From a virus (taxonomy: Duplodnaviria; Caudoviricetes), in the IMG/VR virus record IMGVR_UViG_3300048074_000056, positions 1 to 50,615 of that record: a stretch of 50,615 bases of DNA; one strand, given 5' to 3'. The translations under genes were made by a program, and so were the position numbers. This document shows, piece after piece, positions 1,283-19,276 of this stretch (within the stretch, counting starts at the first letter, position 1; each line of letters opens with the position of its first letter). The notes under the pieces were generated by a model. The model had not been told where the DNA came from, made no database searches, and worked only from the letters and a program-made list of their open reading frames with translations.

Positions 1283-1327
1283 CGCATCATCGCAACAACG
1301 CGCCCGAGAGGCGCATCGGAGAATCAT

Positions 1328-2275: not shown

Positions 2276-2282
2276 GTTCCTA

Positions 2283-2310: not shown

Positions 2311-2336
2311 GTTGAACCCATACCGTAAGGCACCCC

Positions 2337-2833: not shown

Positions 2834-2852
2834 CCAAAACAAGAGGCACCCT

Positions 2853-4245: not shown

Positions 4246-4257
4246 GAGCTTTGCCAC

Positions 4258-4485: not shown

Positions 4486-4538
4486 CGACCCCCGCAGCGG
4501 TATGTATCTCCCACCCTCTCAACTAGGAGCACCCCACC

Positions 4539-5309
4539 ATGGCGATTCCCACATTCGACCCGATCCCCCGCGGCGGTCTGGGGGTCCGAGCCACCCTCAC
4601 CGGCCTCATTCAGGGGCCCCCCATGACCGGAAAGACTACCTTCATGGGAACATGGCCCGATCCCGGGTTCATCCACTTCGACCCCAACACCCCCGTCGTT
4701 GCCAACCAACTCGGCCCCGTCGTCGTGGTGGAGTCGTGGCCTCACTTCCGCGACCACATCGTCCCCGCCATCGTCTCGGGACGGTGGAAGGGGGTTCGCA
4801 CCGTGTGCGTGGACTCCCTCACCTACGCCTGTCGGATGTCGGATGAGGCGGCCGGCGTCCGGGGGAAGGCCAGCGAGGGGGCTGCCTACACCCTCTCCCG
4901 CATCGAGTTTTCGCAGGCCATGCAGCGACTGTTGACGGTGGCCCGGTTCCCATCGGTTCCCGCCCCCGCCCACGTCCTCTGTTCGGTCCACGAGACTGAG
5001 AAGACTGACCGGGACGGATCAGTTCGGGATATCGTGCCCGCCGTCACCGGCCAACTCAAGGACCAACTGGCGGGATGGTTCGACTTCGTGTTTCTTGCAT
5101 CCCTGCGCATCGTCAACCGGCAGGTGGGAACCCGGATCGAGCGGGTGGCCGAACGCTACCTCTCAACCATCCCGGTAGACACCATGCGTCCCTACATTGC
5201 CGACCGGGTCGGGGGCAAGCTGTTTCCCGGCACTCTCCCCGCGGAGGTGTCCCCGCCCACCTACCAACGACTTGCCGAGCTGTGGGAGATCCCCTCAACT
5301 CACCCCTAA
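4539..5309 (+). CDS. AAA_24 / Sak4-like P-loop ATPase (single-strand annealing recombinase)
   Basis: Walker A GPPMTGKTT, Walker B VCVDSLT, WFDFVF; adjacent to a putative SSB. Confidence 0.8.
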   Translation: MAIPTFDPIPRGGLGVRATLTGLIQGPPMTGKTTFMGTWPDPGFIHFDPNTPVVANQLGPVVVVESWPHFRDHIVPAIVSGRWKGVRTVCVDSLTYACRMSDEAAGVRGKASEGAAYTLSRIEFSQAMQRLLTVARFPSVPAPAHVLCSVHETEKTDRDGSVRDIVPAVTGQLKDQLAGWFDFVFLASLRIVNRQVGTRIERVAERYLSTIPVDTMRPYIADRVGGKLFPGTLPAEVSPPTYQRLAELWEIPSTHP

Positions 5310-5400
5310 CCCCGTCCGATGGAACCACCGACTGGTCGGCGGCATCCATCCATCGCAAGCCCACCCGGGCACCCAACCACCAACAGGATAGGAAACACCC

Positions 5401-5823
5401 ATGAGCATCATTCAGTGGACCACCGACGACGAAACCCGGCCGGAGTTCACCTCCGGCACCCACATCGGCAAGCTCATCTCTGTGATGAGCGAACCGCCCA
5501 AGAAGCCGAACGACGACCGGGGTCAGCCGAACCCCAACAACCTCGTCTGGCGAGTGGTGGGGAAGGACTCCATCACAAACGACACCTGCTACGTCACCGC
5601 ATGGAACCCGCTCCGTCCCAAGTCGGGCGGCATGAAGAAGAATGGTGAGTGGCTGCGCGCGCTGGGGATCGACCCGGCGAAGGGCATCACGTTCACCGAC
5701 ACCGATCAGCCGGGTATCTCCGAGATCAAGGAGCTTGCCAACCTCGACATCCAGTTCACCATCGAGCTGGAAACCAAGGACGGTGAGACTCGGGCTCGCC
5801 TCAAGAACATCACAGTCGCCTAA
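5401..5823 (+). CDS. Putative single-stranded DNA-binding protein (DUF669-like)
   Basis: Position after Sak4-like gene, beta-rich 140 aa; mainly synteny. Confidence 0.5.
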   Translation: MSIIQWTTDDETRPEFTSGTHIGKLISVMSEPPKKPNDDRGQPNPNNLVWRVVGKDSITNDTCYVTAWNPLRPKSGGMKKNGEWLRALGIDPAKGITFTDTDQPGISEIKELANLDIQFTIELETKDGETRARLKNITVA

Positions 5824-5831
5824 CCCGGTTC

Positions 5832-5858
5832 GGGGTGGGGGGATTACTCCCCCACCCC
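5832..5858 (+). terminator. GC-rich intergenic hairpin
   Basis: GGGGTGGGGG...CCCCCACCCC inverted repeat. Confidence 0.4.
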
Positions 5859-5880
5859 ACCCCACCCAAAGGAACCCCTC

Positions 5881-6150
5881 ATGAGCATCAACGTCAACGG
5901 CCTCACCAAACTCCCGTTCCGGGTCCTCAGCGGCGACGGGAACGAGGTGGCTGGCACCGAAACCCTCAAGGCAGCCGAAGCCTACATTCGGACCGAGGCC
6001 CCCAACGGCACCTACCACATCATCAAGGTGATCCGCGCCTTCCTGAACGTGGAGACGGTGACCAAGCGACAGGTGGGTGGTGGTGAGCCCACCACGAGCC
6101 GCACCCGCACCCGCCCGGCCACCTTCGACCCCGACGCAGGCTCCGTCTGA
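5881..6150 (+). CDS. Hypothetical protein
   Basis: AAGGAA RBS; codon style like neighbours. Confidence 0.7.
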   Translation: MSINVNGLTKLPFRVLSGDGNEVAGTETLKAAEAYIRTEAPNGTYHIIKVIRAFLNVETVTKRQVGGGEPTTSRTRTRPATFDPDAGSV

Positions 6151-6563
6151 TGGGCTGCTGTGTGAACCGCAGTCAACTCCTGCCCCTCATCGAAGAGCGA
6201 GTGTCTCGCGACGCCATCGCTCACCTGTCCGAAGCCATGACGGTGGAGCCCCTCGGCCACCGTCTCATCGTGGTGTGTGAGGTGACCCCCGAAACCACGG
6301 CGGGTGGCCTCATCAGGGCGGACGCCGGTCAACGGCTGTCGGCGGGATGGGTGGTAAGCTGCGGCGAAGATGTGGGTACCCCCTCCCGATTCCCCGGCGG
6401 GTGGCACCTCCCCGCCGACCAACTGCTCGGACGTCGGGTCATCTTCTCCCAGTATGGGGGAGCCCCCCTCGTGCTAGGGGACCGGGACCGCCCTTACGAT
6501 GCCGATTACCGCATCCTCAACGACTGCGATTTGTGGGCCGTCGTAAACGAGCCCACGGAGTGA
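6150..6563 (+). CDS. groES: Co-chaperonin GroES-like protein
   Basis: EPLGHRLIV, ETTAGGLI mobile loop, RVIFSQYGG, YRILNDCDLWAVV. Confidence 0.85.
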   Translation: MGCCVNRSQLLPLIEERVSRDAIAHLSEAMTVEPLGHRLIVVCEVTPETTAGGLIRADAGQRLSAGWVVSCGEDVGTPSRFPGGWHLPADQLLGRRVIFSQYGGAPLVLGDRDRPYDADYRILNDCDLWAVVNEPTE

Positions 6564-6567
6564 CCCC

Positions 6568-6768
6568 ATGACTACCAAACTCGCCCCCAGTCATCACCGC
6601 TTCATCACGTTCTACGTTCACCCCAACCACCACCGACGAGTGAAGGCAGCCGCCCGCAAGCACAAGCTCAGCTTGTCGGCCTACGTCCGCAACCTCATCC
6701 TCCACGACATCGGGCTCGACGCCTCAGAAGACTACCGCCACATCAAGCGACGGCGGGCAGTCCGATGA
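6568..6768 (+). CDS. Ribbon-helix-helix-like DNA-binding protein
   Basis: FITFYV...VKAAARKHKLSLSAYVRNLI pattern. Confidence 0.6.
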   Translation: MTTKLAPSHHRFITFYVHPNHHRRVKAAARKHKLSLSAYVRNLILHDIGLDASEDYRHIKRRRAVR

Positions 6769-7289
6769 GCCTGCGGGATGGGCCGGCCCCCTCCAACCCT
6801 TCTCAGCCGTGGGGTGTCGTCGGTAAGCGTCCTCCCACCTGTGAAGGGTGCCCGGCCCATCCCACCAGCCTCGGGTGGGTACCACCCATCGGCCCCACCA
6901 CCGCCACCATCGCCCTCATCGGGCAGGGCCCGGGACGTGAAGAAGCCTACGAGTCGATCCCCTTCGTGGGAGCGTCGGGCCGGATGCTCGATCGCTGGTT
7001 GATGCACGCCGGCCTCTCTCGCGAAGCACTCCACATTACCAACACCGTCTGGTGTCACCTACCGGGAAACCGCCCCCCTACCCTCACCGAAACTACCCAC
7101 TGCTGGGATCACCACGTTGGCCCCACCCTCCACTCCCTCCCCAACCTGCGGGTGGTGGTGCCGGTCGGCATCGCCGCCCAGCGTCTCCTGTTGTGGAGTG
7201 AGGGGCCGGGGGAGCGGTTGGTGGGTGGGGTGTACCGGGTGAGGCTCCCGGCCGTCCCTCTATATCCCAACTCTCCCGCCACTCTTTAG
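6765..7289 (+). CDS. Uracil-DNA glycosylase family 4-like, N-terminal fragment (split polymerase piece 1)
   Basis: CEGCP, GQGPGREE, PFVGASG, ITNTVWC..P.NRPP; C-terminal HP motif absent. Confidence 0.85.
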   Translation: MSLRDGPAPSNPSQPWGVVGKRPPTCEGCPAHPTSLGWVPPIGPTTATIALIGQGPGREEAYESIPFVGASGRMLDRWLMHAGLSREALHITNTVWCHLPGNRPPTLTETTHCWDHHVGPTLHSLPNLRVVVPVGIAAQRLLLWSEGPGERLVGGVYRVRLPAVPLYPNSPATL

Positions 7290-7300
7290 GAGCCAACCCG

Positions 7301-7498
7301 ATGCTTGAGTTCATCCTTGGTTGTTGTGTGGGATACTTCGCCCTCGAATTACTCGGCAGCCTGTTCTATGTCCCAAACGTCAACCCCCAACCATACGACG
7401 GCCGTTGTCGGGGGTGCGGAATCCCGCTCACCGATGAATCGGTGACGGAACTCTACTATCACGAGAAGTGTCACCCGTATGGGAGACACCTCAAGTGA
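7301..7498 (+). CDS. Small membrane protein with CxxC
   Basis: N-terminal hydrophobic segment, CRGC; AGGAG RBS. Confidence 0.6.
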   Translation: MLEFILGCCVGYFALELLGSLFYVPNVNPQPYDGRCRGCGIPLTDESVTELYYHEKCHPYGRHLK

Positions 7499-7719
7499 AC
7501 GTCATCATCCGAGCTACCTGCAACCAGTGTGAGACCGTCCTAACCACCATCGAGTACCCGGTTAGCTACCTCGAACTCACCACAAACTACGAATGCGACC
7601 TCACGGTGCGTGACCCCGACGCGGGGAGGCGTGACCCCGACGACGAAATCTGTCTGACCCTCGTAACCCTCAAACTCTGCAAAGAGTGTATCGGTGGAGG
7701 AAAAGCCTGTGCGCACTGA
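7495..7719 (+). CDS. Small Zn-finger-like protein
   Basis: CNQC...CKEC; GTGA overlap with upstream stop. Confidence 0.55.
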   Translation: MNVIIRATCNQCETVLTTIEYPVSYLELTTNYECDLTVRDPDAGRRDPDDEICLTLVTLKLCKECIGGGKACAH

Positions 7720-7942
7720 CGACCCCAACACTCGCCTACCCTTCTACTCACCGCCCGAGGAAGCCGCAACCGACGTGGTGAGTTTGGATCAACCTGCCGG
7801 ACAGGCTCTTGCGGTCGCCCTCGCGGGGTGTGGCCTCACCGCTACGGGTATCCGCGAAACCATGGAGTACGCAGGGCTCGTCCTACGGTGCGAAAGACAT
7901 GACGCCACCCATGGACGACGACGGCTGTGGCCCGACTTCTGA
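7694..7942 (+). CDS. Hypothetical protein
   Basis: ORF tiles the operon; start uncertain. Confidence 0.45.
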   Translation: MEEKPVRTDDPNTRLPFYSPPEEAATDVVSLDQPAGQALAVALAGCGLTATGIRETMEYAGLVLRCERHDATHGRRRLWPDF

Positions 7943-8079
7943 CCACTCGATGGGTGCGGGGGGTGGCCGTCCACGACGTGGGGAGCCGCCTCGTCGTCGA
8001 GATGCTACAACGGGGCAGCCACCGAACAATGGAACCGTGCCACCGCCCCCGGTGTCACACCCTTCCGAAAGGAGACGCC

Positions 8080-8229
8080 ATGCAACCCCTCAAGCCGCCC
8101 ACCTTCACTGAAGCCGCCATCCGATGGTGGGCAGAGAATCTGGTGGCGGTCGTCGTTCCCCTCACCCTCGTCGTGAGTGTGGGGGTGATGGTGGCCGCTT
8201 TCTGGTGCTTCGCGGCCCGTCCCCTCTAA
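8080..8229 (+). CDS. Small membrane protein
   Basis: AAGGAG RBS, MQPLKPP start, long hydrophobic segment. Confidence 0.6.
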   Translation: MQPLKPPTFTEAAIRWWAENLVAVVVPLTLVVSVGVMVAAFWCFAARPL

Positions 8230-8255
8230 CCACCCATCACCGTTTGGAGCACCCC

Positions 8256-8708
8256 ATGCCCACACCCACCGACAACGCTATCCGACTCCTTCGCGACCTC
8301 GAAGAGGTTGGAGTCCGCCCGACATCCTTCGAGTTCAGACCCAGAACTAACAGAGTGGCACTGATTTTCTGGCAAACTGACTACAACGACCACGACTTGA
8401 CCACCATCAAGCGGCTGTTCGGACCCTTCGAGGTTCAGATTGTGGGAGAGAACTGTTGGCTCACCCGGGCTTTCGTCCACCCCGACTACGATCTCACCAT
8501 CGACGCAACCCTGTTCGGTGCCCTCACCTGTGAGATCACCTCAACCGAAGTGGTCACGGAACGAATCACCGACGCCGACCGACTCGACATGCACAACAAG
8601 ATCCAAGACTTGCAGGAAGCTCTCAGGGTGGGAGTACGGAACCGCGCCGTCCACACCTACGACTGCAAGCCCACCCCCACCCCTTTCACCAAGGAGTCCC
8701 CCCAATGA
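8256..8708 (+). CDS. Hypothetical protein
   Basis: GGAG RBS; 3' part of ORF 8124..8708. Confidence 0.7.
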   Translation: MPTPTDNAIRLLRDLEEVGVRPTSFEFRPRTNRVALIFWQTDYNDHDLTTIKRLFGPFEVQIVGENCWLTRAFVHPDYDLTIDATLFGALTCEITSTEVVTERITDADRLDMHNKIQDLQEALRVGVRNRAVHTYDCKPTPTPFTKESPQ

Positions 8709-9073
8709 TCCCTCGACTCACCATCAAGCGACTCGGGCAGTCGACGATGTGTCTTCGGTGTGATGGCGTCGGTGCGTTGGAGGTGGAGCTGTCCGCCGTC
8801 GGTCCCTGCTACGACGGCCCGCCCACAGAGGTGGTTCACTGCGATGACTGTAATGCGCATGGGGCCGTCTGGGTGGACGATCTAGAGTGCGAGTGGTGCT
8901 CCGCGACGCCGCTCTACCTCGTCACGGACGAGCGATGCGCCCACACGACCGAGCACTACACCTGCTCAGCCCACCTCTACGACGAGCTGCCCGAGCCCGT
9001 CGCTGAGTGGCTCGGAATCGCCGAGTCCACCGACGAACAGATGGCCACGAGCCTCACGGAGGCCCGACGATGA
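8705..9073 (+). CDS. Cys-rich Zn-finger-like protein
   Basis: CLRCDGVG, CDDCNAHG, CEWC. Confidence 0.65.
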   Translation: MIPRLTIKRLGQSTMCLRCDGVGALEVELSAVGPCYDGPPTEVVHCDDCNAHGAVWVDDLECEWCSATPLYLVTDERCAHTTEHYTCSAHLYDELPEPVAEWLGIAESTDEQMATSLTEARR

Positions 9074-9990
9074 CCGACACACCCAACCCGCTGCCCGACC
9101 TCCTAGCCGGGGTATGCGAACACCGCCGCAAGAAGTATCCGGCGGTGGATATGCCGGCCCGTCTGTGCTCGGAGTGCATCCAGCTTGTGGTCGATGACCA
9201 CGCTGACCTCCAGCGGCAGGTGGCCGAGTTGGGAGCCCGTACCCACGACGGCGACCTAGCTGCCCGCCTCGCCGCGCTCGAAGCCGCCATGAGTGTATAC
9301 GTTGTCGAAGGGGCAGTCCTTGACCGTGCGAGATTTGCCGAGAAACGCGCCGAGGAACTTCGCCAAAATCTGCATGCCGTCGTGCTTCACAATGTAGAGA
9401 TGGCCACAAAGCTGTCGATTGTCGAGCGTGAGCGCGACGACGCCTTGCGTGGTCTACAGAAGGACTGCTGCGAAGCCATCGCATCCGTTGCAGACGAGCC
9501 CCGTTGCAAGCACGACGACGGCCGATGCCGTGACTGTGAGATAGAGGCGGCACACGACTCGTGTGCGAAGCCGGCGCGTTTCGAGCCCACACTAATCACG
9601 TTTGACGGTGCCCCGGTGACGATTATCGACCACACGACAGGGCTGGAATGGGATGCGCGGCCGACTAGCGAGGCAGACAAGCTGAACTGGCAGGGTGCGC
9701 ATGATCGAATCGCCACAATGAACACCGAACGCTTCGCCGGCCACACCGATTGGAGAGTGCCCACGATCGACGAGCTTTTCACGCTGATTGACCACAGCAC
9801 TCATGGTCCGTCCACGTTCGAGCCGTTCAGGGCTTGCACGCTTTCGAACGACTACTGGTCTTCGTCTACGTACGTGGGCTATCCGCAGGACGCGTGGACC
9901 GTGAACTTCTACAACGGCGACGTGAATGCGTTCAACAAGTCGAACTTCAACTACGTTCGCGCAGTCCGCACGGTGGAGGTGAAGCCGTGA
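9070..9990 (+). CDS. Coiled-coil protein with C-terminal DUF1566 (Lcl / C-type lectin fold) domain
   Basis: DHTTGLEW, GHTDWRVPTIDEL, YWSSST...AWTVNF...YVRAVR. Confidence 0.85.
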   Translation: MTDTPNPLPDLLAGVCEHRRKKYPAVDMPARLCSECIQLVVDDHADLQRQVAELGARTHDGDLAARLAALEAAMSVYVVEGAVLDRARFAEKRAEELRQNLHAVVLHNVEMATKLSIVERERDDALRGLQKDCCEAIASVADEPRCKHDDGRCRDCEIEAAHDSCAKPARFEPTLITFDGAPVTIIDHTTGLEWDARPTSEADKLNWQGAHDRIATMNTERFAGHTDWRVPTIDELFTLIDHSTHGPSTFEPFRACTLSNDYWSSSTYVGYPQDAWTVNFYNGDVNAFNKSNFNYVRAVRTVEVKP

Positions 9991-10340
9991 ACAATGAGAT
10001 TTCCGACAATGCGCAAAGGTGGCTCGATTCGCAATGTGACCACCATGTGGAGCTTGCGCGCCAACACTGTGCTCTGTGCATCGCCGAACTTGTTGACGAT
10101 GGCGTAAATGCAACATCGCGAAGAGAAGAAACATACCAATGGGCGAAGCGCACCATCATGGAGCGCACTGCGGATATGGATGCCGAGCTAGCCGCCCTCC
10201 GAGCCCAAGTTACGAGCTTGCAAGCTGTGGTGATCGCGGCAAACGCGCACTGGTCCTATTCCAGCATTGCGGCGATCAGGGAGAAACTCGAAGCACTACA
10301 CCTCATCGACTTGATGCCGATTGACGAGGTGAAGCCGTGA
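9987..10340 (+). CDS. Hypothetical cassette protein ending DEVKP
   Basis: GTGA-coupled at both ends. Confidence 0.65.
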   Translation: MNNEISDNAQRWLDSQCDHHVELARQHCALCIAELVDDGVNATSRREETYQWAKRTIMERTADMDAELAALRAQVTSLQAVVIAANAHWSYSSIAAIREKLEALHLIDLMPIDEVKP

Positions 10341-10612
10341 CCGACGATCTCGAACAAGCCAGAGAACTTGTGACAGACATGCAAGACGCGAGCGGAGCGA
10401 TAATCGTTCCGAGGGCCTCCGAACTATTGCGAATCGACACGCTACTTGCGGCAGTGCAGGCAGACCTCACGAGCCTGCGCGCGGTAGTCCACGAGGTCGC
10501 GCACGCTGGTGTCGAGGCCGAGGCCCGCAAGTACCTCGTGGTGCAGATCGGTCACGAGACAATGGCCGAGGCGCGAAGGCTCGCACTGGCCACCGAGGAG
10601 GAAAAGCCGTGA
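10337..10612 (+). CDS. Hypothetical cassette protein, C-terminus shared with 11757..12074
   Basis: KYLVVQIGHETMAEARRLALATEEEKP. Confidence 0.7.
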   Translation: MTDDLEQARELVTDMQDASGAIIVPRASELLRIDTLLAAVQADLTSLRAVVHEVAHAGVEAEARKYLVVQIGHETMAEARRLALATEEEKP

Positions 10613-10776
10613 AGCCTTACTCGCGCTGCTGTAACGGATGTGACGCACCCCCGCACGCGCCAAGCAAGGTGCTGTGCCGGGATTGCTTCGCAAAGCTGGA
10701 TGCAAAGATGCAGGCATTGTTTGTCCGTCACGCGGACAAACAGGACGCAGACACGATCGACGAGGTGAAGCCGTGA
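10609..10776 (+). CDS. Small Zn-finger-like cassette protein, 55 aa
   Basis: CNGC...CRDC...DEVKP; not in ORF track; GTGA-coupled. Confidence 0.6.
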   Translation: MKPYSRCCNGCDAPPHAPSKVLCRDCFAKLDAKMQALFVRHADKQDADTIDEVKP

Positions 10777-11210
10777 GAAACACAATCTGCGTCAGGCTCG
10801 TGCTCGCCGAACTCTCTCACCGTACGGACCTTCTGCGCGAAGCGAAACACGCGCTCAGCGTCGCGGAGCGCGAGCGCGCATCCGTCGCCGACAGACTGAA
10901 CTCGGCGCTGAGGCAGGCGCACCTCGGAGAGATCGAATCTGGATCGCTGGAGAACATCCACTCGGGAATCGCTCGGATCGAGTCAGCTATCGCTCTGCCT
11001 CGCTGCCCGCACGACGACGACGAGATCAACGAGCTGCGCGCCGAACTCGCTGCCCTGCGATCCCGCCTCGCGCGCGTGTTGGAGTATCTCAGCGAGCATG
11101 AGTGCGGGGGGCACGGCCTTGTTCACAACTGCTTCCGCATCCTCACACCTGAGACATGCGGGATTCTTCGGACCGGCGACCTTGGCCCGATCGAGGAGGA
11201 GAAGCCGTGA
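10773..11210 (+). CDS. Coiled-coil cassette protein
   Basis: Ends RLARVL...GDLGPIEEEKP, similar to 12071..12388. Confidence 0.65.
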   Translation: MRNTICVRLVLAELSHRTDLLREAKHALSVAERERASVADRLNSALRQAHLGEIESGSLENIHSGIARIESAIALPRCPHDDDEINELRAELAALRSRLARVLEYLSEHECGGHGLVHNCFRILTPETCGILRTGDLGPIEEEKP

Positions 11211-11503
11211 TCGACGTAACTGCCCTGCTGGCAGCCATCGACAATATCGCGAACCTGCCTGAGAACTGGGACACCTACGGCGGTCTCGCAGTGCCATCCA
11301 AAGTCATCGAACGTGCCAAGTGCATCGTGCAACTGATTCACTCTGCGCCTGTCATTGCGCCGATGGTAACCGGAGGTGTCTACATGGTATGGGAGTCCGC
11401 CGATGCGGCTGTGACAATCATCATCCGTACTGACGGCTGCGATGGGATTTATGTTGACGTGTGGCCGCCGGACGCACCGACCACCAAGGAGGGCGACAAG
11501 TGA
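11207..11503 (+). CDS. Hypothetical cassette protein
   Basis: LPENWDTYGG...PMVTGGVYMVWE; GTGA-coupled. Confidence 0.65.
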   Translation: MIDVTALLAAIDNIANLPENWDTYGGLAVPSKVIERAKCIVQLIHSAPVIAPMVTGGVYMVWESADAAVTIIIRTDGCDGIYVDVWPPDAPTTKEGDK

Positions 11504-11760
11504 CTCGACCGAAGCCTATCACGCCGTACGCGCGGCTATTGGCGGCTGCGAATCGGTTTGAATCGCGCGTCCTTTACCCGAAGCGAAAGATCATGTGGTT
11601 CTACCCGAAGAGCAAACTCGGCGAGTCTTGGGCTCTCAATGATCTCGCAGAGCGCGTACAAGCTGCGGACCAGCTCGGCTACGACGTGCGGTTGGTAGTA
11701 GATGGCAATGGCAACCTGTCAGTGGAGTACGTCGAGCGTCCCGGGAGTCTCAACGTATGA
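11500..11760 (+). CDS. Hypothetical cassette protein, intact paralog of 12385..12645
   Basis: TRPKPITPYARLL...VEYVERPGSLNV. Confidence 0.7.
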   Translation: MTRPKPITPYARLLAAANRFESRVLYPKRKIMWFYPKSKLGESWALNDLAERVQAADQLGYDVRLVVDGNGNLSVEYVERPGSLNV

Positions 11761-12074
11761 CCCGCCAGCAAACCCACTACGAAGGCTGCCACGAGCACCA
11801 CCTCGAATGCGCGCTTGCCAAGCTGGAGCGCACGCAGGCCAGCTTGGCAGCATCCGAGGCGGAGCTGCACCAGAAACGCGAGTGGATCGCAAAGCTCGAA
11901 GACGCCTTGGGCGCACTCCATCAGCGAGAGTGGGAACTGAGGAATGTGGTCTACGAGTTTGCGGTGGCCGGCATCGAGCGCGACGCGGGGAAGTATCTCG
12001 TGGTGCAGGTGTCGCACGAGACGATGGAAGAAGCGCGGAGGCTTGCATTGGCCACTGACGAGGAGAAGTCGTGA
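11757..12074 (+). CDS. Coiled-coil cassette protein
   Basis: THYEGCHEHHLECA N-terminus; C-terminus shared with 10337..10612. Confidence 0.7.
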   Translation: MTRQQTHYEGCHEHHLECALAKLERTQASLAASEAELHQKREWIAKLEDALGALHQREWELRNVVYEFAVAGIERDAGKYLVVQVSHETMEEARRLALATDEEKS

Positions 12075-12388
12075 ACGAGGAAATGGTTGTGCTTAGGCTG
12101 GCCGGGGCAATCATACGGGGAGAGCGGTTGTACGACCTCCTCGCCGTGATATTCCGCGACAACGGTGAGCGCGCACAGGAGTTGGGAGACGAGGCAGCAG
12201 TAGAAGAGGCGTGCCTGTCTGTGATGCGTCTGCTCGATGTCGCAGACGACCGCGACGCACTTCGTGCTCGTCTCGCGCGCGTGCTGCGGTACGTCAACGC
12301 ACTGCGCGGCTCGCATGAGAAGCAAGTAGCGTTCGACGCGCTCCAGCCCGGCGACCTAGAAGACCCGATCGAGGAGGTGAAGCCGTGA
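12071..12388 (+). CDS. Hypothetical cassette protein
   Basis: Ends GDLEDPIEEVKP. Confidence 0.65.
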   Translation: MNEEMVVLRLAGAIIRGERLYDLLAVIFRDNGERAQELGDEAAVEEACLSVMRLLDVADDRDALRARLARVLRYVNALRGSHEKQVAFDALQPGDLEDPIEEVKP

Positions 12389-12645
12389 CCCGCCCTAAGC
12401 CTGTCACGCCGTACGCGCGGCTATTGGCTATCGCGCGCGAGTTTGAGTCTCGCGTCCTGTTCCCGAAGTAGAAGACGATGTGGGTCTATGAACACGTCTC
12501 GAATGATGCGAACCGTTGGCCACTCGGAGCATTGGCGCAGCGCGTGAATGCGGCGGCCCAACTCGGCTACGACGTGCGACTGAGAACAAACGACGACTCG
12601 ATAATCGTCGAGTACGTCGAGCGACCGGGGAGTCTCGACATATGA
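12385..12645 (+). pseudogene. Paralog of 11500..11760 interrupted by in-frame TAG
   Basis: TRPKPVTPYARLL...FPK*KTMW...VEYVERPGSLDI; TAG at 12469-12471 where the paralog has CGA. Confidence 0.75.
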
Positions 12646-12731
12646 CCCGCTGCAAGCGCCTCGGGCGCACACGTATGACCGACGACATGACCCCCCATTA
12701 GACAAACCCATACCCCCAGAGGACCACCCGA

Positions 12732-13106
12732 ATGTCGAATGACGAAACTTCCGCCGGCACCCCCGTTGCCGCCGCTCGCTTCTTCGGTGCCATCATCCAA
12801 AAATACCGTAAGAACCACCAAATCAGTCAAGACGACCTCGCCACCGCCTGCGGAATCAACCGCTCCACCCTCGGTCGATATGAAGGGGGCTTGCCGCCCT
12901 CGTGGGCCGGCCTGCTTCGGCTGAGGATGGGTATGGGCTCCGTCGCCTTCCGACAGGCCATCGAGTATGCGTTCGACAAGGCGGTCGAGATGTCACAAGA
13001 GCAAGCCGCTCGAGCCCTCGCTCCCACGTTCGCCCCCGAACCCACCCCCGCCCCCAACTTCACCGTCACCAACCACACCCCCACAGAGTGGGACGTCCCC
13101 GAATGA
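12732..13106 (+). CDS. XRE-family helix-turn-helix regulator
   Basis: IQKYRKNHQISQDDLATACGINRSTLGRYEGG. Confidence 0.85.
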   Translation: MSNDETSAGTPVAAARFFGAIIQKYRKNHQISQDDLATACGINRSTLGRYEGGLPPSWAGLLRLRMGMGSVAFRQAIEYAFDKAVEMSQEQAARALAPTFAPEPTPAPNFTVTNHTPTEWDVPE

Positions 13107-13363
13107 AGCCCCCGATCCCTCTCCACGAGATGGACTGGCACGAAGCAACTCGGTGGCGGTGGCGGGCCGGTCGGGCCGACCGTGGCCTCACCGACAACGA
13201 CCCCTTCGAGGGGGAACCCCTCCTCGAAGCCTATGAGGAGTTGGTGGATGCTTGGACATATCTCAACTTGGGGGGTGAGGCTGGGTTAGCGGACGACATC
13301 CGACGGTTGGGGGAAAGGCTTCGGGCAGCCATTCAGCACCCCTACCCTCGACTCCACCGATGA
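13103..13363 (+). CDS. Small helical protein, possible MazG-like NTP pyrophosphohydrolase
   Basis: EAYEELVDAWTYL (EExxD) motif; ATGA overlaps on both sides. Confidence 0.5.
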   Translation: MKPPIPLHEMDWHEATRWRWRAGRADRGLTDNDPFEGEPLLEAYEELVDAWTYLNLGGEAGLADDIRRLGERLRAAIQHPYPRLHR

Positions 13364-14022
13364 GTGCTCGGGTCACTAGATTCACCCCTCCCACCCTCAC
13401 TGACCGTGAGGTGTGGGTGGTCCCCATCCTTCACCCTGCCTACATCATGCGGGGTGCGGCTGCCTACGGTCCCCCCCAGATCACCTCCCTCAAGCGAGCA
13501 CGCGCCATCGAACGGGAGGGATGGCAAGAGGTGTCCCTCGGTCGATCGCCGGTTCCCCTCTCCGTGGTCCCCCCCATCGACCCCATCCCCACCCTCACCG
13601 AGTGGGAAGCGGGGTGTGGGGTGGATGGGGTAGTTATCGACATCGAGACGGCCGGCCCCATGCTCCTGTGCGTGGGAATCCTCACCCTAGATGAGCCCCG
13701 CACCGCCCTCGTGGTGCCCTTCAGAGGAGAGGGGGGTGTCCCATGGTATGGCGACCCCGCCGACCTAAAGGGAGTGGTGGCATGGCTATCCCGGTTTTTG
13801 GCGGACCCCACCATCCCCAAGGTGTTCCACAACGGCCAGTCGTTCGACGTCCCCTACCTCCAAGACCTCGGGTTCAGTGTGGGGGGGTACGAGGACGACA
13901 CCCTCCTCATGCAGCACACCGCCTACGCCGAACTCCCCAAAGGGTTGGAGTGGTGTGCGGTCACATACTGCGGGGCTCGCCCATGGAAGCATCTTGGGAA
14001 GGCGGAGGGGGAAGGGAAGTGA
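13360..14022 (+). CDS. UDG C-terminal motif fused to partial PolA 3'-5' exonuclease (split polymerase piece 2)
   Basis: VVPILHPAYIMR (UDG motif B), VIDIET (ExoI), FHNGQSFD (ExoII), DDTLLM; no ExoIII. Confidence 0.85.
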   Translation: MSARVTRFTPPTLTDREVWVVPILHPAYIMRGAAAYGPPQITSLKRARAIEREGWQEVSLGRSPVPLSVVPPIDPIPTLTEWEAGCGVDGVVIDIETAGPMLLCVGILTLDEPRTALVVPFRGEGGVPWYGDPADLKGVVAWLSRFLADPTIPKVFHNGQSFDVPYLQDLGFSVGGYEDDTLLMQHTAYAELPKGLEWCAVTYCGARPWKHLGKAEGEGK

Positions 14023-14115
14023 TGAGCAGTGCGTTGTGCCGCTGACCGATGCAAAGCGGTCCCTTGCGACGCCTCGCCGTGCCTCGTAACGCACACCACA
14101 CCACACCACACCACC
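14021..14115 (+). repeat. 5-nt periodic tract 1 (candidate guide RNA)
   Basis: GCagt GCgtt GTgcc GCtga CCgat GCaaa GCggt CCctt GCgac GCctc GCcgt GCctc GTaac GCaca CCaca CCaca CCaca. Confidence 0.8.
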
Positions 14116-14116
14116 G

Positions 14117-14150
14117 GATGGAACCTCCCAACCACCAATGGTTTCCATCG
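14117..14150 (+). other. Hairpin separating periodic tracts 1 and 2
   Basis: GATGGAACC...GGTTTCCATC imperfect inverted repeat. Confidence 0.6.
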
Positions 14151-14160
14151 AGATGACTAG

Positions 14161-14215
14161 GCCGAGCGGACCGATGCCGAGCAAAGCCGAGCCCAGCCGT
14201 GCAAAGCAAACCCTA
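14161..14215 (+). repeat. 5-nt periodic tract 2 (candidate guide RNA)
   Basis: GCcga GCgga CCgat GCcga GCaaa GCcga GCcca GCcgt GCaaa GCaaa CCcta. Confidence 0.8.
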
Positions 14216-14234
14216 ACCCTTACTGGAGTACCCC

Positions 14235-14801
14235 ATGAAGTCCATCATCGTCCGTATCGAAGGTATCACTCCTCTTCTCATGCACCGATTCGCTGACTCC
14301 TCTCTTGTCTCGATCGGGGGAGCCCGCCCTGTCCACGTCAAAGACGAAGACCCCCGTACGGTGGCCGAGCATGCTGCCTACCGAGATGCCGACGGCAACC
14401 TCTACATCCCCGGGGCATCCATCAGCCGCCTTCTGAGGGAGGCTGGCGCATCCCACAAACAGAAGGGTTCCCGCCGAAGCCTCAAGTATATCATCCCGGG
14501 GGTGGTGATCGTCTCCGAGGACGAACTTCCCCTATACGACTCGGGAACGACTCGGGCTACTCACATCGAGGTAGATAGTCGTGCGATTGTAAACCCCGTC
14601 ACCAAAGCCCGCGTCATGTGCCACCGTGCGCGTCTCAACCGATGGGAGTGTGAGTTTGTGTTGGAGATTGACGACGAGGCGATCGCCGTCACTACCGTCA
14701 ACCAACTGTTGGTGGAGGGTGGTCGAAGGATTGGGTTAGGGGCGTTCCGACCCGAGAAGGGTGGGCCGTTTGGGAGGTTCATGGTAACAAGCTGGGTCTA
14801 G
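14235..14801 (+). CDS. Stand-alone Cas7/RAMP-fold protein (Vipr-like)
   Basis: IIVRIEGITPLLMH first strand, LYIPGASI motif, C-terminal G-rich loop GRRIGLGAFRPEKGGPFGRF. Confidence 0.8.
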   Translation: MKSIIVRIEGITPLLMHRFADSSLVSIGGARPVHVKDEDPRTVAEHAAYRDADGNLYIPGASISRLLREAGASHKQKGSRRSLKYIIPGVVIVSEDELPLYDSGTTRATHIEVDSRAIVNPVTKARVMCHRARLNRWECEFVLEIDDEAIAVTTVNQLLVEGGRRIGLGAFRPEKGGPFGRFMVTSWV

Positions 14802-14803
14802 TC

Positions 14804-14918
14804 GCGACCCGTGCCGATTCCTCGTGATGCACAGCCGTTCGACGCTGAGCTTCGCGGAGCCGACCGTCCCGTCGCCCTGCGTGGCGTTGCCCAGCAAACC
14901 AAACCGTCGCACCGTCCC
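14804..14918 (+). repeat. 5-nt periodic tract 3 (candidate guide RNA)
   Basis: 23 in-register pentamers: GCgac CCgtg CCgat TCctc GTgat GCaca GCcgt TCgac GCtga GCttc GCgga GCcga CCgtc CCgtc GCcct GCgtg GCgtt GCcca GCaaa CCaaa CCgtc GCacc GTccc. Confidence 0.8.
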
Positions 14919-14937
14919 CTCACCATAGGAGCACCCC

Positions 14938-16014
14938 ATGTGTACCCGTATGGATACCGCCACCCCCTCTCCCACCGACACCCCTGCCACCTACACCCCG
15001 ATGGCGGGAGGTGGGGGTTCCCGCATGGGAGTCCACTACCTCTCAGAGTTTGTGGCCTGCCCCATCCGATGGTTCTTCCGGTATGCTTACCCGGGCGGCC
15101 CCGCCGGTGAACCCACCGGCCTCACCACCCACCACACCCCCAACCCTCTCCTCACCGGCACCGCCTACCACGCCGGCATCGAAGAGCTGTATCGGTCGGG
15201 GTGGCGCGATGGTGCGGACACCGGCGAGTGGGACATCGACCGGGCGGTCGCCAAAGTCGAGTCGGAGTTCGAGGCCCGAGCCTCGGAGTGGGCCGATCCC
15301 GACGCCATGGTGGTCGAACGACAGGATACCGTTGCCATGGTCCACCGTTACCAGCGCCACTTCGGAAAGGGCGGGCTAGCTCCCGAGCAGGACCACCTCA
15401 AACTGTTGGCTACCCCGTCCGGGGAACCCGCCCTCGAAGTCGAGTATGAGATCCCGGTCGGCAACCGCATCATGACGGCGCGCATCGACGCCCTCGTTCG
15501 CTACCACGGCATCCTCATGGTGTGTGAGCGCAAAACCTCATCGAGGGTATCGAGCACCCTCCAAACCTACTCCCTCAAGGCCCAACCCCTCGCCCTCCTC
15601 CACCTCGTCAACAGTCACCACGCGGAGCCCGCCAACGCCATCCTCCTCGACATCGCCCACAAAAAACACACCAAGTCGTCCCGTCAACCCGAGTTCCTGC
15701 GGTCCCCCATCTCCCACTCTCCCGACCTCCTCCACCAGTTTGTGAAGGCTGCGGAAGGAACCCTCGACGCCATCGACAACCATATGGGGGTGTGGGGTAT
15801 CAGGGTGAAGGGTGGGGCCGACCCCATGGAAGCCGCCTTCCGAACCTTCCCCCTCCGTGGCCTCTTCAACGACCAGTGTTTCTCGTACCAGAGGGAGTGT
15901 GTGTTCGCGCGCTTCTGTCGTAACCCCGCCTCTGCCCCCAACCAGCTTCCCACCTTCCGACCCCGCATCGTCGCACCGACCGAAACCACCGACGGCGATG
16001 AGGACGGAGAGTGA
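14938..16014 (+). CDS. PD-(D/E)XK (RecB/Cas4-like) exonuclease
   Basis: ACPIRWFF, GTAYHAGIE, RIDALV...ERKTSS, C-terminal C..C..C cluster. Confidence 0.8.
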   Translation: MCTRMDTATPSPTDTPATYTPMAGGGGSRMGVHYLSEFVACPIRWFFRYAYPGGPAGEPTGLTTHHTPNPLLTGTAYHAGIEELYRSGWRDGADTGEWDIDRAVAKVESEFEARASEWADPDAMVVERQDTVAMVHRYQRHFGKGGLAPEQDHLKLLATPSGEPALEVEYEIPVGNRIMTARIDALVRYHGILMVCERKTSSRVSSTLQTYSLKAQPLALLHLVNSHHAEPANAILLDIAHKKHTKSSRQPEFLRSPISHSPDLLHQFVKAAEGTLDAIDNHMGVWGIRVKGGADPMEAAFRTFPLRGLFNDQCFSYQRECVFARFCRNPASAPNQLPTFRPRIVAPTETTDGDEDGE

Positions 16015-17501
16015 CCACCGACCTCGACCGCATCTGTCGTAACCTGACAGCTCCGTGGGGGGATCACCCCGAGGGGAAGGTTGGGTGGGGAACCGCCCAC
16101 CCCAACATCTCCACCCTCGCGGTCCCCCCCACCCAACTCCACCTCTACAACACCTTCGACCTCCACTGGACAGCCCAGCTCCACGACGTCCTCACCCGCG
16201 AACTCCGCTCCAACAACCAGCTCCCCTATTGGCGTAACCGCATCGTCCCCCGGGTGGAGGCGGGGATGGCGATGGCTGCCCGTGGTTTGAGGGTGGACCC
16301 CGCCGAGGTATCGCGACTTCGCAGCCAGCTAACCGCCGAGCTAAAGGAAACCGAGGCGGTGGTGAGGGAGGTGGCCCCCACCCTCAACTTCGCTTCCCCC
16401 AAACAACGAGCCGAGTTTTTGCATGGAGCACCCCCCGCTGGCCTCGGTCTGCCGTTGGTGTCTCGCACCGCAAAGGGAGCCCCCTCCACCAACCAAGACT
16501 CCCTCGACCGTCTCCTCAAGCGAATCAAGGGGGTCCGCAAGTACGAGGGAGCCATCCCCATCCTCCACGCCCTCTTCCACCGCTCTCGCCTCTCCACCAT
16601 CCTCTCTCGCTACCTCGATCTCCCCATCGACCGGGACGGCCGAGTCCGACCCCGTCTTCGCATGTATGGGGCTGCCACCGGCCGATGGTCCTACACCGAG
16701 CCCGCCATCCACCAATACCCCTCCGAGTGTCGAAGCATGTTTGTGGCGGCTCCCGGACACCTCTTGGTGTCAGCCGACTACTCGCAGGTAGAGGCTCGCA
16801 TCTTCGCGTGGGTGGTGGGGCTCCCTACCATGCTGGAAACGTTCCGGCAGGGTGGGGACGTCCACACCATGAACGCCCTCATTCTGTTTGGGTGGTCGCC
16901 CACCCACTGGGAAACCCTAACCCCCACCATGCGTAAAGCGGCCCGCAACGCTGCCAAGGTGTTCCTGTATGGGGTTTGCTTGTATGGGGGGCAGGCCGAG
17001 TCGGTCCACTCCAAACTCTTCTGCCCATGCCCTCGATGTGCTGAGCGGCTGCCCCCCACCATCTCCCAGACCCGCACCGAGCTGCGGGTAGCCCAAGACC
17101 GATGGATGGCCAACCACCCCCAAGTCCTCCTTTGGAGGGAGAGGGTGGTGAGGGAGGTATTGTCCCCCGGGGGATCTCGTACCTACACCAACCCATTCGG
17201 CCAGAAGCGATACTTCTCGGGGTGGGGGCCCGAGGTGGAACGTCAACTCTTCAACTACCCCTGCCAGTCGACCGCCATGGACCTCATCAGCGAAGCTCAG
17301 GTGGAGCTGCACCGAAGGGGATGCCCCATCATCCTCCAACACCACGACTCCCTCGTGGCCGAGGTGCCTGAGGGAGAGGTGGATCGGTGGGCCTCCCTCA
17401 TGCAATCCATTATGACGTGCCCCCGCCCCGAGATTCCTGACCTCCCCCTCGCCGTCGATGTCGAGGTGGGGAGGTCGTGGGGAACCCTCCGCCCCATCTA
17501 G
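16011..17501 (+). CDS. polA: DNA polymerase family A, ExoIII plus polymerase domain (split polymerase piece 3)
   Basis: YNTFD (ExoIII), ATGRWS, ADYSQVEARI (motif A), RNAAKVFLYG (motif B), NYPCQS, HHDSL (motif C). Confidence 0.93.
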   Translation: MTTDLDRICRNLTAPWGDHPEGKVGWGTAHPNISTLAVPPTQLHLYNTFDLHWTAQLHDVLTRELRSNNQLPYWRNRIVPRVEAGMAMAARGLRVDPAEVSRLRSQLTAELKETEAVVREVAPTLNFASPKQRAEFLHGAPPAGLGLPLVSRTAKGAPSTNQDSLDRLLKRIKGVRKYEGAIPILHALFHRSRLSTILSRYLDLPIDRDGRVRPRLRMYGAATGRWSYTEPAIHQYPSECRSMFVAAPGHLLVSADYSQVEARIFAWVVGLPTMLETFRQGGDVHTMNALILFGWSPTHWETLTPTMRKAARNAAKVFLYGVCLYGGQAESVHSKLFCPCPRCAERLPPTISQTRTELRVAQDRWMANHPQVLLWRERVVREVLSPGGSRTYTNPFGQKRYFSGWGPEVERQLFNYPCQSTAMDLISEAQVELHRRGCPIILQHHDSLVAEVPEGEVDRWASLMQSIMTCPRPEIPDLPLAVDVEVGRSWGTLRPI

Positions 17502-17557
17502 GGGTCCAACTCCACACCCGAATCGACTACACTGCCAGTGACCCCCGGAGGCTCCCT

Positions 17558-19276
17558 TTGAGTAACCCTAACGACACGGCGGCGGCGGGTTCTGGTCTCC
17601 CCGCCCCGATCGCCCTGCATGATGCTGCCGAGCGTGCCAAAGCCGCCCTCCATGCTCTCAACGAAGTTCTCGACTCCCCCGTCATCCGTACCGATACCGA
17701 GGTGAGGGTTTCCCTCATTCTCACCCTCTCCAACCCCAGCATCCTCTTCCTTGGGAAGGATCGGGTGCGAGCCCTCCACCAACGAGTGGCCGGCGCTCTC
17801 GGGATGACTGTCGATCGCCTTCACGCCGTCCTGCGCCTCAACGAGGTGTTTGAGATACGGCGGGCGATTCGTCCCGTCGAACAACGGCCGGTTAGTGCTG
17901 GGCGAGCCCCGATCGGTGAGCTGTTCCCTACCGACGGTTGGCTCGGTACATATCTCAAGTATGTGAGCGAGAATCAAGTGCCGCTCGGGTGGCATTTTTG
18001 GTGTGGGGTGTCGGCGCTGGGGACGGCGGCCCGCCGCAACTTCTACATCGACCGCGGTAACAACGTCCTCTACATGAACCACTATGTGTTTCTGTTGGGG
18101 CCAACCGGCTCAGGTAAGACGACCGCCATCAAACCAGCCCAGTCCCTCATCCTCAACATGAACGAGCACATCCTCCGTCAAACCTCGGTCGCGACCACCG
18201 ACACCGTTACCGTCCTCCCCGAGCAGATCACCCCCCAGCGTCTCATCCAGCTCCTCAAACACGAACCCACATGGGTAGACCGAGGACTCGACTCCCAAGT
18301 GGCGGTGTTCCCCGATGCCTGTGGCTACCTTGCCGCCGACGAGGCTGTCACCCTCATCGGCAAAGACCTGTTTGCTCCCTCCGTGATGATCCACCTCCTC
18401 ACCGCTCTCTATACCAAAGACAACTTCGAGGCCGGCACCATCACCCGCGGTGACTTCAAACTCCACAACGTCACCCTCAACATAGTGTTGGGTAGTACCC
18501 TCGATTGGTTGAGGGAGGGCATCACCCGCGACATGTTTGGTGGCGGGTTCATGGGTAGGTGGGTGTTCGCATATCGGGGGAGATCGGTAGCCCCTGTCGA
18601 TGAACCGGCCCCTCTCGATCCCCTCATGGAGAACGAGCTAGCGCAGTGGTTAGCGAGGTTGGCGACCGCTCCCCGCACCGAGTTGATTCGGACCCCCGCG
18701 GCCATCTCGTGGTTCAAACAGTGGTATCGACGCCACTACGAACTAAACCAAGATGAGACGTGGTTGTCAGGTTACTACGCTCGCAAGGGAGATCACCTCT
18801 ACAAACTGGCGGGTGTCCTCACCCTCTCGCAGGGTTCAACTACCATCACCGACGAGACGATGCGTCACGCCCTCGCCATCCTCGACGCCGAGGAGCGCAG
18901 CTACCCCGCGGCCTTCCGCCTCATTGGGGCTCACGCTCGATCTCGCATCTACGAACACGTCCTAACCCTGCTGAGGAGGTCGGCATCCCAAACCCTCCCC
19001 ATCACCAGCCTCCTCGCCCAGAGCTACCACCTGTGTGGCGGCAAGCGAGAGTTCGACGACATCCTCACCACCCTCGCTGCTTGTGGTGCGGTGAGGGTGT
19101 GGGTGGATCAAGTCGGCAAGAAGGCCATTCAGATGGCGTCGGTGGTCCCCGACGAGGTGGATGGGGAGGCTTGGGTGGATGGAGTCAACCCGCTTGCCAC
19201 GGCTCCCGGGCCGCCGGCCGACTCCCCGTGGACCACCGTACCCTTACCCTCCACCAAACCATCGGGGGACTCGTGA
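17558..19276 (+). CDS. DUF3987-type P-loop helicase
   Basis: YVFLLGPTGSGKTTAI, ADEA, TITRG, GGFMGRWVF; start uncertain (ORF open from 17477). Confidence 0.7.
   Translation: MSNPNDTAAAGSGLPAPIALHDAAERAKAALHALNEVLDSPVIRTDTEVRVSLILTLSNPSILFLGKDRVRALHQRVAGALGMTVDRLHAVLRLNEVFEIRRAIRPVEQRPVSAGRAPIGELFPTDGWLGTYLKYVSENQVPLGWHFWCGVSALGTAARRNFYIDRGNNVLYMNHYVFLLGPTGSGKTTAIKPAQSLILNMNEHILRQTSVATTDTVTVLPEQITPQRLIQLLKHEPTWVDRGLDSQVAVFPDACGYLAADEAVTLIGKDLFAPSVMIHLLTALYTKDNFEAGTITRGDFKLHNVTLNIVLGSTLDWLREGITRDMFGGGFMGRWVFAYRGRSVAPVDEPAPLDPLMENELAQWLARLATAPRTELIRTPAAISWFKQWYRRHYELNQDETWLSGYYARKGDHLYKLAGVLTLSQGSTTITDETMRHALAILDAEERSYPAAFRLIGAHARSRIYEHVLTLLRRSASQTLPITSLLAQSYHLCGGKREFDDILTTLAACGAVRVWVDQVGKKAIQMASVVPDEVDGEAWVDGVNPLATAPGPPADSPWTTVPLPSTKPSGDS

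Follow-up and report, generated by a model that had tools for sequence, protein, structure and literature searches.

A DNA polymerase with glycosylase and exonuclease modules, probably assembled from three separately encoded proteins in an uncultured phage lineage

The window analysed here is a whole IMG/VR virus record (IMGVR_UViG_3300048074_000056; Caudoviricetes) of 50,615 bp, with a completeness estimate of 98%. Three open reading frames (ORFs) dispersed along its plus strand very likely encode the subunits of a single replicative enzyme, in which a uracil-DNA glycosylase (UDG), a 3'-5' exonuclease and a family-A DNA polymerase (PolA) would be held together non-covalently, with the proofreading site completed in trans. 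The feature is real and, as judged by sequence comparison, very probably functional, so that a working three-protein enzyme is the most likely explanation rather than damage. We favour this reading because the points at which the protein is cut recur in diverged relatives, the motif residues are conserved, unsplit homologues exist, and no route by which the pieces might be rejoined was found. The three pieces are as follows.

Piece 1 (ORF1), 6765-7289, plus strand: 174 amino acids (aa); the N-terminal two thirds of a family-4 UDG fold, without motif B.
Piece 2 (ORF2), 13360-14022, plus strand: 220 aa; the last UDG core strand with motif B, the UDG C-terminal helices, and exonuclease motifs ExoI and ExoII.
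Piece 3 (ORF3), 16011-17501, plus strand: 496 aa; the ExoIII helix, followed by the polymerase thumb, palm and fingers.

ORF1 matches the Pfam UDG family PF03167 (E=1.1e-16) over profile positions 1-101 of 141, and aligns to residues 10-128 of the 192 residues of the Thermotoga family-4 UDG 1L9G, so that the C-terminal third bearing motif B is missing; a UDG-PolA (PDB 9qhs) is among its structure matches. It possesses the cysteines C26, C29, C97 and C113 (CxxC...C...C), motif A in the form GQGPG (6921-6935), F67 and N93. The four cysteines, which align to 1L9G, presumably bind an iron-sulphur (Fe-S) cluster. The missing motif B is found in ORF2, where LHPAY is encoded at 13429-13443 (H25-P26 at 13432-13437), with 24 residues preceding HPAY. 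It is followed by ExoI (VIDIET, with D94/E96 at 13639-13647) and ExoII (HNGQSFD, with N158/D163 at 13831-13848), and the protein ends in ...EGEGK. A profile of 42 ORF2 homologues aligns these motifs to FAFDTET and QN-LKYD of the Klenow fragment (E=1e-4), and this alignment runs out near Klenow chain residue 160, before ExoIII. The ExoIII motif lies instead in ORF3 (YNTFD, Y46-D50, encoded at 16146-16160), which also contains a complete PF00476 polymerase domain (E=7.7e-49, profile positions 3-380 of 381) with motif A (D256, 16776-16778), motif B (R312-G327, 16944-16991) and motif C (H445-D446, 17343-17348). A profile built from ORF3 and related polymerase pieces aligns to Klenow chain residues 159-604 and matches Taq with E=2e-56.

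Together, the ORFs therefore carry all three polymerase motifs of family A (in ORF3) and all three exonuclease motifs, the latter divided between ORF2 and ORF3. Of the features expected of a family-4 UDG, the four cysteines are present, the glutamate of motif A is replaced by glutamine, and motif B is present but on the other chain. This is not a single-chain UDG-PolA: the three ORFs have their own starts and stops and lie 6070 nucleotides (nt) and 1988 nt apart. The start codon of each overlaps the stop codon of the preceding gene (ATGA, ATGA and GTGA), and their G+C content at third codon positions (GC3; 0.77-0.79) is at the level of core genes. Reading frames, Pfam matches and structure alignments thus bear out an earlier sequence-only reading of this DNA, both in the coordinates and motifs of the three ORFs (UDG motifs without His-Pro in ORF1; LHPAY, ExoI and ExoII but no ExoIII in ORF2; ExoIII followed by polymerase motifs A to C in ORF3) and in its description of open frames coupled to upstream stops.

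A separate observation concerns the fingers of ORF3, where a clade-specific CPCxxC insert of about 15 residues (C338-C343, 17022-17039), absent from Taq, may form a small metal site; the pattern F-C-P-C-x-x-C is invariant in all 11 aligned polymerase pieces.

When compared with an unsplit homologue, the pieces fit end to end. The 816-aa UDG-exonuclease-PolA protein P0017 is tiled colinearly by ORF1 (residues 22-144 on 9-143), ORF2 (20-206 on 155-340) and ORF3 (38-490 on 355-801) at 24-33% identity, with about 11 and about 14 P0017 residues left uncovered at the two junctions. Likewise, ORF2 and ORF3 fall in order on the PHROG 17 profile (positions 671-787 and 802-1232, respectively). The colinearity that had been proposed from the sequence therefore holds on both PHROG 17 and P0017, and the alignment to an unsplit homologue that had been suggested as a check gives a tiling with small uncovered stretches. 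An AlphaFold2 model of unsplit P0017 (mean predicted local distance difference test score (pLDDT) 87.7, predicted template modelling score (pTM) 0.88) resembles the Klenow fragment, with template modelling (TM) scores of 0.80-0.84 when normalised to the target. On this model, the first cut (cut 1, between ORF1 and ORF2) maps to a loop, residues 145-153, between UDG-sheet strands 142-144 and 154-158, the latter of which carries the His-Pro motif; the second (cut 2, between ORF2 and ORF3) maps to the poorly ordered residues that separate helix 330-338 from the long ExoIII helix (357-383). In blocks of 10 residues, pLDDT falls to 79 at cut 1 and to 61 at cut 2, and both cuts map to low-confidence loops of the modelled unsplit homologue. 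Two relatives made of two pieces (P0133 and P0177) carry inserts of 55-75 residues exactly at cut 1. At cut 2, the ...EGK... motif is kept in unsplit relatives, so that the termini there are ancestral sequence rather than new tails. In agreement with the claim that both breaks lie inside catalytic domains, cut 1 falls within the UDG sheet and cut 2 between ExoII and ExoIII, and none of the pieces constitutes a complete UDG or exonuclease domain by itself. A prediction of the three-chain complex (with ORF2 as partner, and using the alignments of UDG-bearing, polymerase and middle sequences described below) gave a score that was non-specific, since a control in which the polymerase was replaced stayed high.

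We then asked how the same protein is arranged in relatives. A full HMMER search with ORF2 against 1.84 billion representative sequences returned 1191 matches at E<=1e-3, and the best 150 of these were classified. Among them, 73 are middle pieces with both cuts, 34 contain a whole UDG with ExoI and ExoII and stop at cut 2, 20 stop there as well but are short at the N-terminus, nine continue past cut 2, and 14 are other or ambiguous. The 73 middle pieces have a median length of 208 aa, start at most 45 aa before the His-Pro strand and share a C-terminus at the same ...EGK; 65 begin with methionine. On the other side of cut 2, the 10 closest homologues of ORF3 (459-487 aa, 36-45% identity) match PF00476 only and all start a few residues before ExoIII. 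Furthermore, in three other viral genomes (G001, G002 and G004) a UDG N-terminal piece, a middle piece and a polymerase piece follow one another on a single strand, as they do in the window. The gaps between the pieces vary as follows.

Genome G001: cut 1, 0.2 kb; cut 2, 6 nt.
Genome G002: cut 1, 2 kb; cut 2, overlapping stop and start codons.
The window: cut 1, 6.1 kb; cut 2, 2.0 kb.
Genome G004: cut 1, 10.4 kb; cut 2, 0.5 kb.
Metagenome contigs: cut 1, 0.2-2.2 kb; cut 2, 5 nt to 1.2 kb.

The metagenome contigs, 31 in number, were fetched using the alignment of polymerase pieces as a profile. Middle and polymerase parts are both visible in 17 of these, and in every one of the 17 they occupy separate frames; the UDG N-terminal and middle parts are separate in 10 of the 11 contigs showing both, being fused in one (L046). 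Two contigs (L057 and L067), with frame lengths and scores equal to those of G001, probably represent the same phage. Unsplit relatives are more distant; they include G003 (845 aa), P0017 and several IMG/VR contigs.

The residues of the divided sites are strongly conserved. Across 42 middle pieces with 34-48% identity to ORF2, D94, E96, N158 and D180 are invariant, and H25, P26 and D163 are retained in 90% or more; in 20 UDG-bearing sequences, the four cysteines, G53, P56, G57, F67 and N93 are invariant; and in 11 polymerase pieces the same is true of Y46, N47, D50, D256, R312, K316, Y320, H445 and D446. These alignments indicate that the divided sites are under purifying selection, and the comparison as a whole that the two-cut split is old, shared, and the usual condition in a large lineage of uncultured phages that is essentially undescribed and within which the window is unusual only in the distance between its pieces. 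It is against this background that we weighed the idea that the polymerase gene is broken, that its pieces are remnants in decay and that the phage relies on host polymerases for replication. The interruption of the gene, and the presence of no other family-A polymerase in the 50.6-kb genome, could be taken to favour this view. Decay is nevertheless highly unlikely given the recurrence of the same cut points with intact motifs in relatives at only 35-48% identity, and given that all pieces are open and have coupled starts and the GC3 of core genes.

Other arrangements were seen among these contigs. In L069 (909-3695), the polymerase piece lies within a 948-aa frame that carries an in-frame insertion of about 1.2 kb between profile positions 188 and 200, which looks like an intein. 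L029, L030, L033 (at about 9550-12600) and L035 encode UDG-PolAs that are more distantly related and are divided within the polymerase domain (at profile position ~218 or ~150), with parts separated by 0.3-0.5 kb. In L036, L038 and L039, the UDG is a gene of its own beside a fused exonuclease-polymerase.

The record is a metagenome-assembled contig, and the dispersed arrangement might in principle have been created by misassembly. We consider this extremely unlikely, since independent sequencing runs X3 and X4 yielded contigs of at least 99% identity across 27 and 29 of 30 bins, contigs from these runs bridge the end of ORF1 at 7289/7290 (6859-7357 and 7073-7676), an RNA-library contig of run X7 bridges the end of ORF2 at 14022/14023 (13954-14217), and the same order is found in three other genomes and many contigs. 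The coverage check that had been proposed against misassembly thus shows contigs running through the ends of ORF1 and ORF2 and, among the pieces listed, no joints. We note that the RNA-library contigs are not proof of transcription, and that bins uncovered there (e.g. 15850-16971 in X7 and X9) are uninformative. In addition, an identical ORF1 protein is recorded from three contigs. As a side observation, one low-depth contig of X4 links position 16158 to 12272 with 14 unmatched letters between them, and loose ends occur at ~12272-12289 and 16141-16158; this link could come from a chimeric contig or reflect a rearranged variant.

The same data bear on the suggestion that the pieces are rejoined, whether by introns, split inteins, programmed excision, recoding or DNA rearrangement. 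There are grounds for taking it seriously: so-called fractured genes, whose halves carry split inteins and flank endonuclease genes, have reportedly been found in metagenomes (Dassa et al. 2009, PMC2677866), and the middle and polymerase pieces of G001 lie in one frame, separated by just one stop and two codons. A split intein would be expected to leave about 100 aa of N-intein at the C-terminus of the upstream piece and about 35 aa of C-intein at the N-terminus of the downstream one, whereas the unaligned tails comprise about 13 aa in ORF1 and about 17 aa at the N-terminus of ORF2, far short of intein halves, and the pieces tile P0017; the ORF3 N-terminus has about 35 unaligned aa, partly conserved with relatives. 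The sequence-only reading had seen no intein ends, and this stands. No Rfam family, and hence no intron model, was matched at gathering score in the window. No joints were present in the contigs, which came from two DNA and two RNA-library runs, and the edges of the gaps are not matched by direct repeats of more than 27 nt. Finally, the frames differ in G002, and the pieces in the window are kilobases apart. Rejoining is in our judgement very improbable. Stop readthrough or recoding at cut 2 was rejected as a general mechanism on similar grounds: the frames differ in G002, and other genes intervene in the window and in G004.

If the three proteins do form one enzyme, piece 1 would, judging from the fold, supply most of the Fe-S-type UDG; piece 2 would donate the missing core strand, the His-Pro motif and the UDG C-terminal helices, while also carrying ExoI and ExoII; and piece 3 would donate the ExoIII helix together with the whole polymerase. 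The chemistry of the UDG module is less clear. Q54 of ORF1, in GQGPG, aligns to the catalytic glutamate of 1L9G, and the same motif is found in all seven UDG N-terminal pieces of the three-piece clade that were examined (those of the window, P0272-P0274, G001, G002 and G004), whereas five of the six sequences grouped as running past cut 2 have GEAPG, with no motif found in the sixth (P0211). The histidine of motif B is kept in the three-piece clade, on ORF2. A paper on solved single-chain UDG-PolAs (PMC13697223) describes the UDG as sitting on single-stranded template DNA, in front of the polymerase site, and the phiLo enzyme as excising template deoxyuridine (dU) by means of E53 and H178/N177.

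Several points weigh against the three-subunit enzyme as described. Metagenomic gene calls can be truncated, and eight of the 73 middle pieces lack an initial methionine. The profile used to fetch the 31 contigs was built on polymerase-only proteins and may under-sample unsplit close relatives. Among the contig pieces listed, to which 65 further pieces can be added, the starts of ORF2 (13360) and ORF3 (16011) are unbridged. Finally, all 116 cellular-type family-4 UDGs sampled have GEAPG or GEGPG where ORF1 has Gln54, and the catalytic E53 of the solved phiLo UDG-PolA occupies this very position (PMC13697223). With a glutamine at the position of the catalytic glutamate, a canonical glycosylase site may not exist, and the chemistry may be altered or lost.

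This raises the possibility, which we do not favour but regard as a serious one, that the enzyme is split as proposed and its UDG is no longer a glycosylase, so that pieces 1 and 2 would bind or guide the template, or sense uracil without cutting, and only the exonuclease would be completed in trans. The distribution of GQGPG and GE(A/G)PG motifs points this way, as does the lack of thymidine-modification or base excision repair (BER) genes among the ORFs scanned; moreover, N4-like UDG-PolAs have reportedly lost UDG catalytic residues, with the domain thought to serve processivity (PMC10201439). Set against this is the conservation of the motif-B His-Pro, the pocket phenylalanine and asparagine, and the four cysteines, which looks like a tighter constraint than a fold serving for DNA binding alone would require. 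Furthermore, some UDG families without an acidic motif-A residue are active. Returning to the three-subunit enzyme, comparative evidence strongly supports the core of the earlier reading, one enzyme in three chains with the UDG fold and the proofreading site each divided between two of them. Of the two active sites said to be completed in trans, the exonuclease is the safer case, the UDG site being uncertain owing to the motif-A glutamine. A more far-reaching picture, which we put forward as speculation and think rather improbable, would have an obligate heterotrimeric replicase of a large uncultured lineage, in which the cuts are endonuclease scars turned into landing pads for accessory genes (up to 10 kb), and the glutamine-bearing UDG is a non-excising sensor of template uracil or modified bases ahead of the polymerase. 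If true, such a sensor would be to bacterial viruses what the read-ahead uracil pocket of family-B polymerases is to archaea.

The ORFs in the gaps of the window for the most part matched no family in PHROGs and Pfam scans. The features of the two gaps are as follows.

Gap 1, 7290-13359, plus strand: 6070 nt; about 18 small ORFs, mostly orphans.
Zinc-ribbon-like 65-aa ORF, 7301-7498, plus strand: in gap 1, after ORF1.
Lcl_C/DUF1566-domain protein, 9007-9990, plus strand: in gap 1.
XRE-type helix-turn-helix (HTH) protein, 12732-13106, plus strand: in gap 1, before ORF2.
Gap 2, 14023-16010, plus strand: 1988 nt; a 212-nt spacer and two ORFs.
phrog_4652 ORF, 14235-14801, plus strand: in gap 2.
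PD-(D/E)XK nuclease, 14938-16014, plus strand: in gap 2; its stop codon overlaps the ORF3 start.

The ORFs of gap 1 have GC3 values of 0.65-0.79 (most 0.65-0.72), compared with 0.77-0.79 for the three pieces, and include tandemly duplicated small genes (paralogues); the duplicates and the mostly lower GC3 fit a later accretion. In gap 2, the nuclease has homologues in G001 and G002 that lie upstream of the UDG N-terminal piece, within the replication module, so that a gene of the same module has moved into the cut-2 slot of the window. The earlier description of the intervening genes as unrelated therefore does not hold for this nuclease. In most relatives, a small gene encoding a coiled coil and a zinc ribbon directly follows the UDG N-terminal piece, often followed in turn by a CI/XRE-type HTH gene. 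The small gene may have occupied the cut-1 gap for a long time, or its product may be an accessory factor. Examples are:

L045, 4678-4983: coiled-coil/zinc-ribbon gene.
L048, 6413-6709: coiled-coil/zinc-ribbon gene.
L050, 8852-9094: coiled-coil/zinc-ribbon gene.
L055, 6823-7050: coiled-coil/zinc-ribbon gene.
L056, 6283-6582: coiled-coil/zinc-ribbon gene.
L020, 3666-3995, minus strand: coiled-coil/zinc-ribbon gene.

As to how the split arose, fission of the gene by mobile nucleases, with other genes filling the gaps later, is the likely origin. An ancestral single-chain UDG-PolA would have been cut twice in surface loops, probably by the insertion of free-standing homing-endonuclease genes; each piece would then have gained its own start and stop, and the two gaps would have become slots accumulating other genes, amounting in this phage to 6 kb and 2 kb. 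In two relatives the gaps hold HNH genes: an HNH_3+AP2 ORF lies at cut 2 in L070 and an HNH_3 ORF at cut 1 in L053, each scoring 28.4 bits, above the Pfam cut-off of 24.8, and these are a signature of free-standing homing endonucleases. Less favourable to this account, which rests on those two relatives, is that no homing endonuclease was detected in the window's own gaps, where the ORFs scanned against Pfam matched none of HNH, GIY-YIG and LAGLIDADG.

Two repeat structures were also noted in gap 1. A segmental duplication (10484-10613 versus 11946-12075, and 11487-11765 versus 12372-12650; 73-89% identity) gives rise to paralogous small proteins (...HETM.EARRLALAT.EEK. and ...VEYVERPGSL..). 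In addition, a 28-nt element with the consensus ...GAGGAGGTGAAGCCGTGA ends seven consecutive small genes (9963-12388), encoding a C-terminal ...E(E/V)KP and containing a GGAGG that resembles a Shine-Dalgarno sequence, as well as a GTGA in which the stop overlaps the start of the gene that follows. The element may be a recombination or coupling cassette that shuffles small genes.

The genome around these genes has a G+C content of about 63%, with early and replication genes on the plus strand up to ~20 kb and late genes on the minus strand beyond. It contains one family-A polymerase match (PF00476) and one UDG match. No tRNA genes were found in the window, and the absence of Rfam families refers to the gathering score, weaker sub-threshold matches lying outside the scan. 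Thymidine-hypermodification genes accompany some UDG-PolAs; none of these, and no BER genes, were found among the ORFs scanned, which covered the early genes and left the late region outside. Other members of the replication module, encoded at 1262-6563 and 17477-19276, are DUF932, a RadC-like JAB protein, DUF7227/GP88, a Sak4-like AAA_24 ATPase, a GroES-like protein and a DUF3987 primase/helicase-like protein. A megablast of window positions 6000-18000 against a phage collection gave no match, and searches of viral contigs for close relatives gave no match with the ORF3 protein alone and two loci with the ORF2 protein alone.

Family-A polymerases are textbook single-chain enzymes. The present case suggests one that tolerates two within-domain cuts, through the proofreading site and through the UDG beta-sheet, in a state that would have been stable over deep divergence; it would offer positions, taken from nature, for the engineering of split or regulatable polymerases, and two defined hot spots for gene gain in phage replication modules, and it raises a testable question regarding the role of a Glu-to-Gln UDG at the replication fork.

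The closest published enzymes, single-chain UDG-PolAs (N4-like cluster 17; the SPO1/SP-10/SP-15 type; phiLo and YerA41), have the same domain order of family-4 UDG, 3'-5' exonuclease and family-A polymerase, as described in Czernecki et al. 2023 (PMC10201439) and Missoury et al. 2026 (PMC13697223). The window differs from them in having three polypeptides with cuts within the UDG fold and the exonuclease, GQGPG rather than GE.PG, and the CPCxxC fingers insert.

The literature searched yielded one published PolA split, the two-gene case of T7-like cyanophages, and, in its open part, no account of a UDG-PolA whose UDG is interrupted, whose exonuclease is divided between ExoII and ExoIII, or whose parts lie kilobases apart. 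In those S-SBP1-like cyanophages, the exonuclease and polymerase are encoded by two overlapping adjacent genes that arose through a 1-nt frameshift (PMC10201439; PMC12695635), an arrangement that the 2023 paper called the first such in PolAs (PMC10201439). Here too, a family-A phage polymerase comes from separate genes by fission, with presumed non-covalent reassembly. However, that split is described in the paper as separating the exonuclease and polymerase domains, whereas the window has two cuts, both within domains, and keeps ExoIII with the polymerase; the family of the window also adds a UDG module and has up to 10 kb of other genes between its pieces. The S-SBP1-like PolA belongs to a different lineage, the closest solved structures to the window's polymerase being Taq and Klenow.

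Among cultured phages, Caulobacter phage Kuura (OQ067476.1; L076) has the same cut 2: a 369-aa protein with UDG, ExoI and ExoII (Kuura_029) ends there and is followed by two small ORFs and then a 560-aa polymerase (Kuura_026) that starts at ExoIII. Unlike the window, Kuura has two pieces only, with an uncut UDG and a different motif A (GD...), and no four-cysteine pattern was seen in the stretch of Kuura_029 sequence inspected. Kuura_029 is annotated as a hypothetical protein, and only the polymerase piece is named, which serves as a warning for annotation: 'hypothetical' proteins of about 200 aa and about 175 aa may be polymerase subunits.

The nearest parallel for the process itself is Aeromonas phage Aeh1, in which nrdA is split by the free-standing endonuclease gene mobE (Crona et al. 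2011, PMC3045599). The phage enzyme concerned is essential; a mobile endonuclease gene has broken it into fragments, and it is made whole through association of the protein parts rather than by splicing. In a similar way, HNH genes occupy both cut sites among the relatives of the window. The window differs from Aeh1 in that no homing-endonuclease gene was detected in its gaps, its splits are ancient and common to a large lineage, and its gaps have become multi-gene cargo regions.

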